Below are positions 2,717-7,958 of a stretch of DNA of 7,958 bases, piece after piece. The position numbers and the translations under genes were made by a program. The notes under the pieces were generated by a model. It searched no databases, had not been told where the DNA came from, and saw nothing but the letters and a program-made list of their open reading frames with translations. The DNA is from a virus (Duplodnaviria; Heunggongvirae; Uroviricota; Caudoviricetes): positions 1-7,958 of IMG/VR virus record IMGVR_UViG_2579778613_000007. One strand, written 5' to 3'. The stretch's first letter is position 1. Each line of letters starts with the position of its first letter.

Positions 2717-3265
2717 ATGAATCACTTGATGGTTGACCTTGAAACAATGGGCAACGGGCCATACGCGCCAGTTATTTCTATTGGGGCGGTATTCTTTGAC
2801 CCGAATACCGGAGAAACAGGAGAAGAGTTCTCGGTAAATATCTCGCTTGAGTCATCAATGCGATATCGGGCGCGTCCTGACGCTTCAACGATTTTATGGT
2901 GGATGGAACAGAGTGAAGAAGCCAGAAAATCGCTAACCAGCAACACTCAGGAGCTTTCAACGGCTCTTTCATGGTTATCTGAATTCATCATAAAGAACGC
3001 TAACCACAAATTCGTTCAGGTTTGGGGGAATGGAGCATCATTTGACTGCGTTATTCTCCGAAACAGTTATTCGCTGACAGGGCAGCCAGTTCCGTGGCAG
3101 TGGTGGAATGACCGCGATGTAAGAACAATCGTCGAGCTTGGAAAGGTAATAGGATTCGACCCTAAGCGAGATATGCCATTCAAAGGAACTCGTCACAACG
3201 CGCTTGATGATGCCATCCACCAAGCCAAATACGTTTCAGCAATCTGGAAAAAATTAGCTAAATAA
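2717..3265 (+). CDS. DnaQ-like DEDDh 3'-5' exonuclease
   Basis: 182-aa ORF with all three exonuclease motifs: Exo I MVDLETMG (D, E), Exo II VWGNGASFD (D), Exo III HNALDDAIHQ (H, D). SD AAGGA 5 nt upstream of the ATG. Confidence 0.8.
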   Translation: MNHLMVDLETMGNGPYAPVISIGAVFFDPNTGETGEEFSVNISLESSMRYRARPDASTILWWMEQSEEARKSLTSNTQELSTALSWLSEFIIKNANHKFVQVWGNGASFDCVILRNSYSLTGQPVPWQWWNDRDVRTIVELGKVIGFDPKRDMPFKGTRHNALDDAIHQAKYVSAIWKKLAK

Positions 3266-3281
3266 TCAACAGGAGAAAATC

Positions 3282-3575
3282 ATGCCAGCGCCTCTGTATG
3301 GTGCGGATGACCCGCGCCGCTGTTCCGGCAATTCCGTATCGGAGGTGCTGGCTAAATTCAGAAAAAACTACGACCTGATAATGTCGCTACCGCAGGAAAC
3401 GAAAGAGGAAAAGGAATTTCGCCATTGTATATGGCTTGCAGAGAAAGAAGAACGCGAGCGAATTTACCAGACATCAATCCGACCATTCCGCAAAGCCACA
3501 TATACCCACTTCCCTGAAATTGACCCGCGCCTGCGTAATTACCGCTCACGCTATGGCGCTATCAGTAATGACTGA
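3282..3575 (+). CDS. Hypothetical protein (97 aa)
   Basis: ATG at 3282 preceded by AGGAG; co-oriented, 16 nt after the exonuclease stop. No recognisable domain. Confidence 0.6.
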
Positions 3576-3585
3576 GGAATTTACC

Positions 3586-3753
3586 ATGAGAGGACTTGCA
3601 TACAATCCCGGCATTCTTCAGGCAGAAATGATTATTCGCCAACGCGTAAAGCCAATGCCATCGAGAGAGGAATTGCTTAAGAGAAAGAGTTTCGGTTCTG
3701 TTAATGACAACAAATATCTGAATGCGATGTGGCGCAAAGGAGGCAACCAGTGA
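3586..3753 (+). CDS. Hypothetical small protein (55 aa)
   Basis: ATG at 3586 with GAGG 8 nt upstream. The longer ORF from 3436 in the track overlaps the previous gene in another frame and is less likely. Ends in the repeated motif AGGAGGCAACCAGTGA. Confidence 0.5.
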
Positions 3754-3804
3754 GTAATTCAGCACGACTACAGCTTGGTTTTTCACCGCTATCAAAAAAC
3801 TATC

Positions 3805-4005
3805 ATGCTGGCAAAAATGCGCGATGTTGAAGGTGGGCGTATGCGCGTTGGCAATGATCCAGGTCGTGATGTTACCAATGAGGATGCTCAATTGGTGTGG
3901 CAACTGGTCATGGCTGAAGGTGGTGAGATCGCGTGGGAGCTGGATGATGGTTCTCGCATGGTGTTGAAGGCAGAAAAACAGGAGGCAACCAGTGAACAAG
4001 ATTGA
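3805..4005 (+). CDS. Hypothetical small protein; start uncertain (ORF open from TTG at 3775, first ATG at 3805, no clear SD)
   Basis: Open frame ...MLAKMRDVEGGRMRVGNDPGRDVTNEDAQLVWQLVMAEGGEIAWELDDGSRMVLKAEKQEATSEQD. Its 3' end overlaps the start of the next gene by 14 nt. It may be the downstream part of a frameshifted gene. Confidence 0.4.
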   Translation: MLAKMRDVEGGRMRVGNDPGRDVTNEDAQLVWQLVMAEGGEIAWELDDGSRMVLKAEKQEATSEQD

Positions 4006-4486
4006 CTATCAGGCACTGCGTGAGGCGGCAGAGCGTGCAATTCAGGCAATGGAACGCCTGTTAATGTTGCCAGTTGATGATGATCTGATAAGCGAACAGG
4101 AACTTAAAGATTTCGGTGTGGATATTGATGCGCTCAACGCCTTCAAATTTCTGGCCGGACCAGAAACCGTGCTGGCACTACTTGATGAACGGGAAGCAGA
4201 CAAAAAGCGCATTGCAGAACTGGAAGCTCGGGAAATAAAACCAGCCAAAGGTGAAGTTCTTGTCGTTGTTTCTGGTTTTACTGGTTGCGGAAAAAGCGCC
4301 ATTGCCGGGGAAATAGAAATCGCGATGAAGGCTATTGGTGTACCGGTTCAGTGGACTAATGGCGATGCGGAAAAGCGCATGACAGGAGCTGACTGGCTGA
4401 CAGCGATTGAGATGTACAAACCAACTGTGCGCATCGTGGAAGTTAATGTGCCACGCGTCGCTGGAATTCGCATCAAAGGAGAGTGA
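3992..4486 (+). CDS. Ead/Ea22-like early-region protein
   Basis: GTG start with AGGAGG 6 nt upstream. The N-terminal YQALREAAERA and central TVLALLDERE motifs match what I recall of Ead/Ea22-like prophage proteins. The C-terminal part carries a Walker-A-like GFTGCGKS. Confidence 0.6.
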   Translation: MNKIDYQALREAAERAIQAMERLLMLPVDDDLISEQELKDFGVDIDALNAFKFLAGPETVLALLDEREADKKRIAELEAREIKPAKGEVLVVVSGFTGCGKSAIAGEIEIAMKAIGVPVQWTNGDAEKRMTGADWLTAIEMYKPTVRIVEVNVPRVAGIRIKGE

Positions 4487-4487
4487 T

Positions 4488-4685
4488 ATGGATAAAAACA
4501 CCACTGCCTACTGGAGTCTGTCACTTGATACCGAATGTCCCAAATGTGGTCACAATTTCGATCTGCTTTGTGATCCAGATTTCTGGGAGTTTTCTGGAGC
4601 TAAACAGGCATGTGAAGAAATAAAAGGTTACGAAACATGCTGTCCAGAATGTAACCATGAATTTAAAACAGATTTCGTGTATTGA
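4488..4685 (+). CDS. Small zinc-ribbon protein (65 aa)
   Basis: MDKNTTAYWSLSLDTECPKCGHNFDLLCDPDFWEFSGAKQACEEIKGYETCCPECNHEFKTDFVY with two Cys pairs (CPKC ... CPEC). The ATG lies 1 nt after the upstream TGA within the repeated module AAAGGAGAGTGATATG. Confidence 0.6.
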   Translation: MDKNTTAYWSLSLDTECPKCGHNFDLLCDPDFWEFSGAKQACEEIKGYETCCPECNHEFKTDFVY

Positions 4686-4695
4686 GGCATAACAA

Positions 4696-4812
4696 ATGAC
4701 CACTATTACCAAAGAATGGCTACAGAAAACGATTACCAGCATTGAGTCAGCACGGGATGAAATGCCGTTCGGACTCGATGAAGATCAAAGCAACATGCTT
4801 ACCGCAATTTAA
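4696..4812 (+). CDS. Short ORF (38 aa), possibly the N-terminal remnant of a frameshifted gene
   Basis: ATGACCACTATTACC... (MTTITKEWLQKTITSIESARDEMPFGLDEDQSNMLTAI). Its first 11 nt are identical to the start of the DUF551-like gene at 4979, and the N-terminus resembles MTTIIDKK...LNELITNIEFAAR. Confidence 0.3.
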   Translation: MTTITKEWLQKTITSIESARDEMPFGLDEDQSNMLTAI

Positions 4813-4978
4813 AATTGCACTGGCATCACTGGAAGCAAAACCAATAGGTGCTTTCCACATTGCAGAACAGCAAGTTGACGGCACAAGTGACTATCTCAAG
4901 GATGGAGAATGGCCTATTGATAATGGGATTATTGAAGTCTACACCGCGCCGCCATGCTTCAGGGTAAAGGAGAGTGAT

Positions 4979-5542
4979 ATGACCACTATAATCGATAAGA
5001 AACAGTATCCAGGCGAGCAATATCTTAATGAGCTGATCACCAACATAGAGTTTGCTGCAAGGGCACCAGTTGAAGTCGTGAGAGCAATGGCAGCAGAGCT
5101 ACAGAAGCGGCGCGAAGCTGATAGTGCCGAACCTGCAAGTAATCATGAAGAGTTGCCACTTGATTATCTCCAAGGTCAAAAAGATGGTCTTGAATGGGCT
5201 GCGCAGCTTGCAGAAGCAAATCACCCACAAACTGGCGACTGGCTTTACGATGACCCGCTGGAGCTGGCTAAAGCTATCAGAAAAGGTCCTGACATGCCCG
5301 AATTCGATGGACCAGCTCCGGTAACTCCGGATGGCTGGATAAGCTGTAGTGAGCGAATGCCAGATGATGGTCAGCACGTAATTATTTTATGTGATGGCGC
5401 ATTCGTTCTTTATGCGCAATATCGAGACAGTGAGTTTTTTGATGTTGTCCGCAATGGTGAGGAGTTCTTCGAAACGCAGAGCCGCAATGTAACCCACTGG
5501 ATGCCGCTACCGGAACCGCCGCAGGAGGCTGACAATGGCTAA
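4979..5542 (+). CDS. DUF551-like phage protein; the same frame is open upstream to 4757/4742, so an N-terminally extended form is possible
   Basis: C-terminal PDGWISCSERMPDDGQHVIIL...NVTHWMPLPEPP is the pattern I associate with DUF551. The ATG at 4979 is preceded by AAAGGAGAGTGAT, the same RBS module as at 4475-4490. Confidence 0.65.
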   Translation: MTTIIDKKQYPGEQYLNELITNIEFAARAPVEVVRAMAAELQKRREADSAEPASNHEELPLDYLQGQKDGLEWAAQLAEANHPQTGDWLYDDPLELAKAIRKGPDMPEFDGPAPVTPDGWISCSERMPDDGQHVIILCDGAFVLYAQYRDSEFFDVVRNGEEFFETQSRNVTHWMPLPEPPQEADNG

Positions 5543-5819
5543 TCTGCAACTGGCAGTGAACGGCGAATACTTCGACCAGATGAAGCGGGGCGAGAAAACG
5601 GAAGAGTATCGCCTGTGTAATGACTACTGGAATAAGCGAATTATGTTCCGGGAGTATGACCGCCTGATTATCACAAAGGGATATCCGAAGCGCGACGATT
5701 CCAGTCGCAGAATTGATGTTCCGTATGGTGGATATGAAATCAAGACAATCACACATCCGCACTTCGGCGATAAACCGGTAAAGGTGTTCGCGATAAAGGT
5801 GAATATCGGCAATGAATAA
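5535..5819 (+). CDS. ASCH/PUA-like small protein (94 aa)
   Basis: MANLQLAVNGEYFDQMKRGEKTEEYRL... The G-x-K-T-x-E-x-R signature near the N-terminus and the size fit an ASCH-type fold. AGGAGG 6 nt upstream of the ATG; overlaps the DUF551-like gene stop by 8 nt. Confidence 0.5.
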   Translation: MANLQLAVNGEYFDQMKRGEKTEEYRLCNDYWNKRIMFREYDRLIITKGYPKRDDSSRRIDVPYGGYEIKTITHPHFGDKPVKVFAIKVNIGNE

Positions 5820-5822
5820 CAT

Positions 5823-5847
5823 CCTCGCACTCGCGGGGATTTCTTTT
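5823..5847 (+). terminator. Rho-independent terminator (first of a tandem pair)
   Basis: Stem CCTCGC-actc-GCGGGG (one G-U pair) followed by ATTTCTTTT, 4 nt after the ASCH-like stop codon. Confidence 0.55.
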
Positions 5848-5852
5848 ATCTG

Positions 5853-5877
5853 AACTCGCTACGGCGAGTTTTGTTTT
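5853..5877 (+). terminator. Rho-independent terminator (second of a tandem pair)
   Basis: Stem AACTCGC-tacg-GCGAGTT followed by TTGTTTT. Confidence 0.6.
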
Positions 5878-5890
5878 ATGGAGACAAGAA

Positions 5891-6235
5891 ATGTCAGATT
5901 TGGCTATGAAGATTTTGAAATGGCAATCGACTGGCGATGTCGGCATCAGTAGCGCAACTCTTGCCTCAATCGCATGTGGACTGAAAAAGAATATCTATGG
6001 TCATCACTTCGGCGCTCCACATGATGCAGCCGATTTCCGGCGATGCGTTGCACTTGTTGAGCAGATTCCAGAAATCAGAGATTCATTCGACAAGGTTGCA
6101 AAGCGCGTTCCGGCATTCAAAGGAATCCTCAACGAATGGGATTCACTCGTTGCTCTGTTGAAGTCTGAAATGAAGACGTACGGGAACAAAGCACCAGAGA
6201 CTTACAGAAGAATCAGCGAGCTACGCAAGGACTAA
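5891..6235 (+). CDS. Hypothetical protein (114 aa), moron-like gene flanked by terminators
   Basis: ATG at 5891 with GGAG 7 nt upstream. Product MSDLAMKILKWQSTGDVGISSATLASIACGLKKNIYGHHFGAPHDAADFRRCVALVEQIPEIRD... has no domain I recognise. Terminators lie on both sides. Confidence 0.6.
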   Translation: MSDLAMKILKWQSTGDVGISSATLASIACGLKKNIYGHHFGAPHDAADFRRCVALVEQIPEIRDSFDKVAKRVPAFKGILNEWDSLVALLKSEMKTYGNKAPETYRRISELRKD

Positions 6236-6292
6236 CCCGCCTCACACTCGATGAGGCATTTTCATTTATCAAGATATCCAGACCTACCATCG

Positions 6293-6313
6293 CCGCATCA
6301 ATGCGGTTTTTTT
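6293..6313 (+). terminator. Rho-independent terminator
   Basis: Stem CCGCA-tcaa-TGCGG followed by TTTTTTT, 58 nt after the stop of the 114-aa gene. Confidence 0.65.
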
Positions 6314-6358
6314 ATTGCCTGATTTGCAGGTTCGATTCCCTATTCGGAGATAGCACTC

Positions 6359-6559
6359 ATGCAACACGAACTACAACCTGATTCACTGGTTGATTTGAAA
6401 TTCATCATGGCCGATACTGGCTTCGGTAAAACCTTCATCTACGACCGGATTAAGTCCGGCGACCTGCCAAAAGCCAAAGTTATCCACGGACGAGCAAGAT
6501 GGTTATATCGTGACCATTGTGAGTTCAAAAATAAGCTCTTAAGTCGCGCCAATGGGTAA
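6359..6559 (+). CDS. AlpA/Xis-family excisionase-like DNA-binding protein
   Basis: 66-aa ORF MQHELQPDSLVDLKFIMADTGFGKTFIYDRIKSGDLPKAKVIHGRARWLYRDHCEF... Shows the AlpA-type winged-helix pattern (I..TG.GKT.IY..I..G..P...VI.GRA.W). GGAG 9 nt upstream of the ATG. Confidence 0.8.
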   Translation: MQHELQPDSLVDLKFIMADTGFGKTFIYDRIKSGDLPKAKVIHGRARWLYRDHCEFKNKLLSRANG

Positions 6560-6641: not shown

Positions 6642-7035
6642 ACACCAGATACCCTTCAAACGAAATCTACCTTCACCCCGTAAAAGATGGGTTTGGCAGC
6701 ACACTTGCCTTATATCTACTCATTTTTACTGCAACAGGTTGAAATCTCAGCACTGTCAGAAAGCGCTGATGACTAAACAGCCCTGGGCCGGGCGATGTAA
6801 CCATCACACAGAATCCTGATAGCGAAATATGGCGTGACTCGATACTTCACTCCGCAATGCATTCCTTGATGAATTCGCAGGACCGTGATACACGGGACAG
6901 GTCACTGAATGACGACAATGTCCTGGAAATCAGCGAACCGCGCATCTGAAGTACATTTGAGCGACTGTACCAGAACATGAATGAGGCGTTTGGATTAGGC
7001 GATTATTAGCAGGGCTAAGCATTTTACTATTATTA

Positions 7036-7088: not shown

Positions 7089-7958
7089 CTATATTGCTGA
7101 AGGTACAGGCGTTTCCATAACTATTTGCTCGCGTTTTTTACTCAAGAAGAAAATGCCAAATAGCAACATCAGGCAGACAATACCCGAAATTGCGAAGAAA
7201 ACTGTCTGGTAGCCTGCGTGGTCAAAGAGTATCCCAGTCGGCGTTGAAAGCAGCACAATCCCAAGCGAACTGGCAATTTGAAAACCAATCAGAAAGATCG
7301 TCGACGACAGGCGCTTATCAAAATTTGCCACGCTGTATTTGAAGACGGATATGACACAAAGTGGAACCTCAATAGCATGTAACAGCTTCACTAATGAAAT
7401 AATCCAGGGGTTAACGAACAGCGCGCAGGAAAGGATACGCAACGCCATAATCACAACACCGATAAGTAATGCATTTTTTGGCCCTACCCGATTCACAAAG
7501 AAAGGAATAATCGCCATGCATAGCGCTTCGAGTACCACCTGGAATGAGTTGAGATAACCATACAGGCGCGTTCCTACATCGTGTGATTCGAATAAACCTG
7601 CATAAAAGACAGGAAAAAGTTGTTGATCAAAAATGTTATAGAAAGACCACGTCCCCACAATAAATATGACGAAAACCCAGAAGTTTCGATCCTTGAAAAC
7701 TGCGATAAAATCCTCTTTTTTTACCCCTCCCGCATCCGCCGCTACGCACTGGTGATCCTTATCTTTAAAACACATGTTGATCATCATAAATACAGCGCCA
7801 AATAGCGAGACCAACCAGAAGTTGATATGGGGACTGATACTAAAAAATATGCCGGCAAAGAACGCGCCAATAGCATAGCCAAAAGATCCCCAGGCGCGCG
7901 CTGTTCCATATTCGAAATGAAAATTTCGCGCCATTTTTTCGGTGAAGCTGTCAAGCAA
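7089..7958 (-). CDS. LacY-family oligosaccharide:H+ symporter (MFS), possibly a CscB-like sucrose permease; partial, 5' end beyond the window end
   Basis: The 289-aa C-terminal portion aligns by eye with LacY: EKMARNFHFEYGTARAWG vs EKVSRRSNFEFGRARMFG, DQQLFPVFY vs DQQFANFF, PKNALLIGVVIMALRI vs GKNALLLAGTIMSVRI, LHAIEVP vs LHMFEVP (LacY H322/E325 region). Multiple hydrophobic TM segments. AT-rich codon usage unlike the phage part. Confidence 0.9.
   Translation of the reverse strand: MLDSFTEKMARNFHFEYGTARAWGSFGYAIGAFFAGIFFSISPHINFWLVSLFGAVFMMINMCFKDKDHQCVAADAGGVKKEDFIAVFKDRNFWVFVIFIVGTWSFYNIFDQQLFPVFYAGLFESHDVGTRLYGYLNSFQVVLEALCMAIIPFFVNRVGPKNALLIGVVIMALRILSCALFVNPWIISLVKLLHAIEVPLCVISVFKYSVANFDKRLSSTIFLIGFQIASSLGIVLLSTPTGILFDHAGYQTVFFAISGIVCLMLLFGIFFLSKKREQIVMETPVPSAI

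Follow-up and report, generated by a model that had tools for sequence, protein, structure and literature searches.

The sequence analyzed here, referred to as the window, is a stretch of 7,958 nucleotides comprising bases 2-7959 of the draft contig AYQZ01000028.1 (GCA_000503575.1). It corresponds to the early-left accessory ("ea") region found in P22-like and lambdoid phages and in prophages of E. coli and Salmonella; its genes match those in the ea region of P22-like phages, HK97 and HK620, and positions 2717-6559 are the ea operon of a prophage remnant. The subjects of this report are two different 16-nucleotide sequences, each of which occurs twice in that operon, and the small gene DUF7446, whose reading frame is interrupted. 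The genes in question all lie on the + strand. DUF2737 (3586-3753, 55 amino acids; Pfam PF10930, E 4.5e-28, and annotated as DUF2737 in relatives) is followed by DUF7446 (3750-4005, frameshifted, 256 nucleotides here versus 255 in intact relatives), by an Ead/Ea22-like gene (3992-4486, 164 amino acids; Pfam PF13935, E 3e-19), by an open reading frame (ORF) of 65 amino acids (4488-4685) and by a gene with a DUF551 domain (4696-5542, 281 amino acids in its intact allele, also frameshifted here). The first 16-mer, AGGAGGCAACCAGTGA, designated linker 1, was located at 3738-3753 and 3980-3995, and the second, AAAGGAGAGTGATATG, designated linker 2, at 4475-4490 and 4966-4981, all four on the + strand.

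Both pairs are exact, as had been claimed in a preliminary description of this DNA, and allowing up to two mismatches brought out no additional copy of either 16-mer in the window, which contains no longer exact direct repeat. Only 0.007 exact 16-mer pairs would be expected by chance in 7958 random bases, and none of 200 shuffled sequences gave two 16-mer matches. Both 16-mers contain a canonical Shine-Dalgarno (SD) sequence 6-7 nucleotides ahead of a start codon, with a stop codon that overlaps or abuts the start. Linker 1 consists of the SD AGGAGG, a 6-nucleotide spacer (CAACCA) and GTGA, in which, at the first copy, the DUF2737 stop overlaps the DUF7446 GTG start. Linker 2 has the SD AAGGAG and the stop/start arrangement TGATATG; at its first copy these are the Ead stop (TGA, 4484-4486) and the ATG of the next gene at 4488, and the linker supplies the tail of Ead, ...GIRIKGE-stop. 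The preliminary description placed a stop codon and an overlapping GTG at both copies of linker 1. This is accurate for 3738-3753, where the linker encodes the last five DUF2737 codons plus the stop (KGGNQ-stop). At 3980-3995 the SD and GTG do serve Ead, but the upstream gene does not end there: DUF7446 reads through the TGA of the 16-mer (QEATSEQD-stop), terminates at 4003-4005 and overlaps Ead by 14 nucleotides. Since the two copies of linker 1 are thus read in different frames (KGGNQ-stop in DUF2737, QEATSE... in DUF7446), conservation is at the nucleotide level. The flanks of these two copies have nothing in common beyond the 16 nucleotides, and other junctions in the same operon have quite different sequences.

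To place the linkers in other phages, viral contigs were scanned and contexts were counted among the matches listed, which gave at least 173 non-identical contexts for linker 1 and at least 144 for linker 2. Upstream families were clustered at the protein level (BLASTP on 80-residue segments) after removing the linker-encoded tail; this replaced clustering of the flanks at the DNA level, which may split diverged alleles of one gene. Linker 1 was preceded by at least 15 protein families lacking detectable mutual similarity. Five of these end in KGGNQ-stop, with the stop in GTGA, and ten end in (K/Q)EATSE...-stop, the stop usually lying 10 nucleotides later (e.g. EATSEQD-stop). Downstream of linker 1, about 12 families were found among the matches listed, an approximate count because single linkage gave 13 and one run merged Ead with DUF7446. 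Some linker 1 combinations contain neither DUF2737 nor Ead. For linker 2, the matches listed comprised about 25 upstream families, many ending in ...GIRIKGE-stop, and about 28 downstream families. The suggestion that the 16-mers are conserved linkers at gene junctions was therefore upheld, since in other phage contigs both join many upstream and many downstream families that lack detectable similarity.

Most matches coincide with gene boundaries. In 110 of 136 occurrences of linker 1 the TGA ends an upstream frame of 40 codons or more, and in 124 of 136 the GTG begins one of that length; by the same standard linker 2 scored 128 of 141 upstream and 125 of 141 downstream. Pairs of linker 1 copies, spaced 224 to 2435 nucleotides apart, enclose at least seven different cassette families. 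Between contexts that are unrelated on both sides, the island of exact identity has a median length of 17-19 nucleotides and a 90th percentile of 21-29 nucleotides. A second sample was anchored on DUF2737 and comprised 80 loci chosen without reference to the linker. DUF2737 ends in an exact linker 1 at 45 of these and in a version with one or two mismatches at 30 more (75/80), and the junction GTG is the start of eight different gene families. Ead comes first at the junction, with no DUF7446 cassette, at 38 of the 80 loci; DUF7446 comes first at 13, and in 11 of those 13 it is followed by a second linker and then Ead. EC16 has the empty arrangement, namely DUF2737, a single linker and Ead. In HK620 both 16-mers recur with one mismatch each, as AGGAGGCAGCCAGTGA between hkaH and hkaG and as AAAGGAGAGTGAGATG between hkaG and hkaF. 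The same string lies between many gene pairs, and loci with and without a cassette differ exactly between linker copies. DUF7446 is a cassette of this kind: one linker copy separates it from DUF2737 and another from Ead. Separately, the family most often found ahead of linker 2 in other phages is the C-terminal module of the window's Ead.

The DUF7446 cassette of the window does not encode a continuous protein. As described previously, the GTG at 3750 opens only 26 codons, ending at the TGA at 3828-3830, and the adjacent frame (3775/3805), which runs to 4005, has no purine-rich SD upstream. It had been proposed that a frameshift parted the start from the gene body, and this is what alignment to three intact relatives revealed: the window has one extra A in TCAAAAA(A)CT, which is the sole length difference. 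The shift occurs after codon 16 and converts an 84-codon gene into a 26-codon stub plus a body in the +1 frame (ATG 3805 to TGA 4005). Two homopolymers had been named as candidates. Both are present, one position away from where they had been placed (T5 at 3779-3783, A6 at 3794-3799), and of the two only the A run, which is A5 in intact alleles, differs from the relatives; the T5 run is the same in all. In three complete E. coli genomes the annotated DUF7446 coding sequence (255 nucleotides) is continuous across the junction of the two frames, starts at the GTG of the GTGA overlapping DUF2737 and ends 14 nucleotides inside the Ead gene. This is the opposite of a gene with its own start at 3805 and of 16-mers lying away from gene boundaries.

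When the intact protein was used in tblastn searches, 20 full-length, single-frame copies were recovered in other loci, all with A5, and only in the window's lineage was the match confined to residues 9-84. All 11 copies with A6 belong to that lineage. After removal of one A, the repaired 84-amino acid protein matches PF24233 (E 2.4e-17, 63 bits against a cut-off of 24.1) over profile positions 2-70 of 70, and phrog_1578 (E 2e-32) from profile position 1. Because both profiles begin upstream of the shift, the 16 codons preceding it belong to the DUF7446 gene. Nothing significant was returned by a PDB sequence search with the repaired protein. Note that gene callers report DUF7446 on this contig as an independent ORF of 66 amino acids. 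In other prophages the gene is broken in other ways, being truncated or frameshifted elsewhere (L006, L217).

The distribution of the A6 allele was examined in contigs encoding exactly the window's 164-amino acid Ead protein. At least 12 such contigs were found, and 10 places were examined, six in NCBI assemblies and four in SRA-derived (Logan) assemblies. A6 is present in all 10. The 242-nucleotide unit from linker to linker is identical to that of the window in each of the nine places that have both linker copies; the tenth, L287, has lost the first copy of linker 1. The left-hand contexts of these places are of at least four kinds (a RecT module, a Rad52 plus single-strand binding protein (SSB) module, inverted late genes, and a cI/gp16 rearrangement) and the right-hand side is a common xis-csc junction, from which it follows that they represent one resident prophage lineage with an inherited A6. 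The A6 version was found in none of the 178 complete E. coli records containing the stretch, for which the best matches were one base shorter, and a search for the A6 site in GTDB representative genomes gave no matches. A6 is thus a real, inherited allele. Most likely it makes DUF7446 a pseudogene, a reading in line with the other lesions of the remnant.

The second copy of linker 2 (4966-4981) falls within the DUF551 ORF. The TGA of this copy is not in the frame that is open upstream and has only 13 open codons ahead of it, and in the intact allele (L296) a single DUF551 ORF of 281 codons runs through it. The ATG at 4979 keeps its SD and starts the C-terminal module of DUF551. Profile matches divide at the same place: residues 1-88 of the ORF match phrog_3323, whose members are about 90 residues long, and the match to phrog_6847 starts at residue 95, encoded by the ATG at 4979. 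In contig L147 a separate upstream gene ends in AMLQGKGE-stop at the sequence of linker 2 copy 2; in the window, ...VYTAPP is joined out of frame to ...MLQGKGE-stop near 4944-4955, which carries the upstream gene into the downstream one. Judged from these comparisons, 4966-4981 is a fossil gene boundary and not a live one, and the DUF551 gene is a fusion of two ancestral genes, the partners being an Ead-like gene of roughly 93 amino acids and a DUF551 gene beginning at ATG 4979.

One of the other lesions of the remnant lies in this gene: relative to L296, the DUF551 gene of the window has a second one-base insertion, GCATTT to GCAATTT at 4806-4807, with the result that a stop arises at 4810-4812. 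Near-identical relatives are polymorphic for this insertion, five of ten having it (L289, L290, L292, L294 and L295) and five lacking it (L287, L288, L291, L293 and L296). Assignment of this frameshift to an extra T in the TTT run was considered and is wrong, as the comparison with L296 identifies the additional base as an A. Gene callers report DUF551 as separate ORFs of 38 and 261 amino acids. A third recurrent junction was noted as well (window 4690-4710 and 4979-4989). TAACAAATGACCACTATTACC, which lies at the start of the DUF551 N-terminal module, is also found in contigs L166 and L117, and ATGACCACTAT is repeated at 4696 and 4979, so that both genes start with MTTI.

Taken together, these results make it likely that the window holds the remnant of an ea operon in which the 16-mers are conserved cassette-boundary sequences and the DUF7446 cassette has been broken by an inherited A5 to A6 change. 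The mechanism we propose is as follows. Each 16-mer combines an SD and a fixed spacer with the stop codon that ends one gene and the start codon of the next, and translation of the second gene is presumably coupled to that of the first. Recombination between two linker copies would exchange, insert or remove a cassette and at the same time regenerate a working junction. This might take place between two phages, between a phage and a resident prophage, or between direct repeats within one genome. Any upstream gene landing at a linker would gain the tail that it encodes (KGGNQ-stop, EATSEQD-stop or ...KGE-stop). The likely catalysts are the annealing recombinases of the Rad52/Rad22 family or RecT that relatives of this prophage carry a few genes upstream in the same operon; host RecA is the other candidate. 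In this lineage a slipped-strand insertion extended A5 to A6 and frameshifted DUF7446 after codon 16.

Several points weigh against this reading. That the joints were made by recombination inside the 16-mers, and that cassettes move in this way, we infer from comparison of sequences. The exact 16 nucleotides (median island 17-19 nucleotides) are shorter than the minimal efficient pairing segments quoted for Red-beta (23-27 base pairs) and RecA (31-34 base pairs; PMC3945230), and phage recombinases act with very low efficiency (about 1e-8) on 5-13 base pairs (PMC3945230, PMC2327257). With an island of 16-29 nucleotides, below these minima, linker recombination should therefore be rare per encounter. 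The absence of detectable similarity among flanking families means none by BLASTP on 80-residue segments. Some of the SD-like matches to linker 2 are probably chance matches in unrelated phages, by which its family counts are inflated to an unknown degree. The internal ATG at 3805, even without an SD, could still serve as a start in the A6 allele. Finally, illegitimate recombination followed by selection would also leave breakpoints at gene boundaries.

The last point leads to the main rival, in which illegitimate recombination occurs anywhere and selection retains joints at gene boundaries (the Hendrix model). The 16-mers would then be inert for recombination and would recur as the fixed ends of a few widespread modules, namely the 3' end of DUF2737-type genes and the 5' leader of Ead. 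In keeping with this, DUF2737 or one other upstream family is found in 57 + 50 of the 172 linker 1 contexts listed, most linker 1 contexts have an Ead-type gene downstream, and 16 nucleotides falls short of the published pairing minima. The joint in L287 also favors it. There, homology to the window starts at 3745, inside linker 1, and only 9 nucleotides, AACCAGTGA, are shared; the ORF upstream, which is Gp157-like, continues in frame into the N-terminus of DUF7446 (L287 4740-4770). Because this joint rests on only 9 nucleotides, it looks like a microhomology deletion and not like a linker-to-linker exchange. A few widespread modules do not, however, account for the 13 other upstream families that linker 1 follows, for the roughly 11 non-Ead families that it precedes, for combinations lacking both DUF2737 and Ead, or for the reading of linker 1 by upstream genes in two frames. 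Seven cassette families are flanked by it on both sides, and chance joints would not recreate the same spacer. The rival is weakened by this breadth of linker partners, and we regard it as unlikely.

A stronger version of linker exchange supposes that the linkers form a dedicated exchange slot, in which the operon's own annealing recombinase swaps or deletes cassettes much as in an integron, with no integrase involved. The accessory cassettes would possibly be anti-defence genes, and a junction of 16-30 nucleotides would supply a ribosome-binding site, a stop and a start as well as the C-terminal tail of any gene that landed upstream. If true, this would explain why at least 15 protein families lacking detectable similarity end in the same linker-encoded peptides. 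The likeness to integron cassettes lies in an array of accessory genes that lack promoters of their own and all point the same way, individual cassettes being there or missing between repeated junctions. There are also differences. The linker array has no integron integrase, the 16-mers, on direct reading, are not self-complementary, unlike the imperfect palindromes of attC, and the linker repeat is a ribosome-binding site plus stop/start, at which exchange would be general or by annealing rather than site-specific. We consider a dedicated slot quite unlikely.

It is improbable that the A6 allele still makes a working DUF7446 protein, whether by +1 ribosomal or transcriptional slippage or by re-initiation at ATG 3805 or 3817. 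The sequence would allow for it, in that the intact reading, with exactly the wild-type SKTIML, would be regained if tRNA-Lys slipped by +1 on TCA AAA AAC, and the stub stop (3828-3830) lies 13-25 nucleotides downstream of both ATGs, which would place them within reach of re-initiation. The allele has also persisted unchanged in 10 places. The shifted arrangement, however, is confined to a single prophage lineage, is absent from the 178 complete E. coli records and was not seen in any other DUF7446 copy examined. Neither ATG is preceded by an SD, and a re-initiation product would lack 18-22 N-terminal residues that the Pfam and PHROG profiles include. Neighboring genes of the remnant are decaying too. 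Efficient transcriptional slippage is usually tied to runs of about nine or more, and six As is shorter. Programmed frameshifting was rejected, as the two-frame arrangement is not conserved and all DUF7446 copies outside the lineage are single-frame at this site, with A5. The signals do not fit either: the needed shift is +1, A_AAA_AAC is a heptamer of the -1 type, and a -1 slip on it gives the wrong frame. On reading the sequence, no +1 stimulator was found, as it has neither an SD upstream nor a rare or stop codon in the A site (downstream RNA structure was not examined). Phase variation was likewise rejected, since run length is constant, with A6 in 10 of 10 places of the lineage and A5 in all other copies.

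Convergent selection for an optimal translation-coupling signal, instead of descent or recombination, is a very improbable source of the likeness among the 16-mers. It would account for a canonical SD (AGGAGG or AAGGAG) 6-7 nucleotides before a start with an overlapping or abutting stop, and in the DUF2737-anchored sample the SD positions do vary less than the spacer. Selection on SD and start does not, however, dictate the spacer CAACCA or the exact GTGA and TGATATG arrangements, other junctions of the same operon use quite different sequences, and the variants are single point changes from the consensus, which is the pattern of descent. An error of sequencing or assembly as the source of the extra A, a concern raised by its position in a homopolymer of a draft assembly, is effectively refuted by the same A6 in 10 of 10 places from independent NCBI and SRA-derived assemblies and by the full-length, unshifted state, relative to relatives, of exo, abc2, Q, the gene for the 114-amino acid protein, xis and the part of cscB present.

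Both features are of kinds already described, the one being boundary linkers and the other a homopolymer pseudogene. The model of short conserved boundary sequences in lambdoid phages (Susskind & Botstein 1978; Clark et al. 2001, for HK620; both as cited in PMC3029335) concerns short strings at gene boundaries of early operons that are common to phages with different flanking genes and are proposed sites of homologous module exchange. The 16-mers resemble these and show no difference in kind: they are conserved in nucleotide sequence at boundaries, have non-homologous genes on both sides and occur in the early operon of HK620. The flanking-family counts and the two-frame reading come from the present analysis. 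Relaxed or short-homology recombination as a source of mosaicism has been described for phage recombinases of the Rad52-like, RecT and Red-beta types (Martinsohn 2008, PMC2327257; De Paepe 2014, PMC3945230). It offers a candidate enzymology, in which defective prophages act as donors and recipients, but that work relied on diverged homology over tens to hundreds of base pairs and the linkers typically provide an island of 16-29 nucleotides. Like other homopolymer pseudogenes of cryptic prophages, A6 is a short mononucleotide run expanded by one base, it affects an accessory gene of a non-excising prophage, and it is inherited vertically. Compared with these there is nothing notable about A5 to A6, which is a short run without length variation in the lineage.

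For annotation, DUF7446 (3750-4005) and the DUF551 gene (4696-5542) of this contig should be marked as frameshifted pseudogenes, which matters little beyond housekeeping. For phage evolution, the window provides a clear worked example of the boundary-sequence model, in that one string of 16 nucleotides both carries the signals for translation and, read in two frames, encodes the ends of many different proteins, and one linker copy survives as a fossil within a fused gene. The window could also serve as material for a systematic test of whether breakpoints are concentrated in linkers.

The remainder of the operon, again on the + strand, consists of a 3'-5' exonuclease gene (2717-3265) and the gene for the anti-RecBCD protein Abc2 (3282-3575) upstream of DUF2737, and of an ASCH-like gene (5535-5819), the gene for the 114-amino acid protein (5891-6235) and Xis/TorI (6359-6559) downstream of DUF551. 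The late genes Q (1128-1751), ninH (1748-1936) and rusA (1933-2295) occupy positions 1-2330 on the - strand and are joined head-to-head, in inverted orientation, to the early-left operon. Host cscB (7089-7958, - strand) forms the other end of the window, and between xis and cscB there is only a DUF4942-like fragment (6827-7006), with no integrase. Nor does the rest of the window encode an integrase of any kind. The prophage is therefore a P22-like/lambdoid remnant next to the csc locus of E. coli that is rearranged, lacks an integrase and is unable to excise.

A few further observations were made on individual genes. An ORF resembling HNH-type endonucleases (about 2326-2708, + strand; phrog_2340, E 9e-41) lies directly after the inversion joint, between it and the exonuclease gene. 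A tRNA scan of the window found none; the relative L006, which has a similar arrangement, carries tRNA-Thr and tRNA-Asn beside Q. The 65-amino acid ORF that follows the first copy of linker 2 contains two CxxC pairs and matches phrog_4173 (E 9.5e-28), with only weak matches to YnfU-family and Rad50 zinc-hook motifs. In the C-terminal half of Ead there is a Walker-A-like motif, GFTGCGKS (about 4273-4296), and a weak match to adenylyl-sulfate kinase (E 0.008). Lastly, the cscB gene adjoining the prophage appears to be broken: in the source contig, L292, the permease is called in two pieces of 289 and 98 amino acids (7090-7959 and 8041-8337, extending just past the right end of the window), and the complete genome L004 annotates the same gene as frameshifted.

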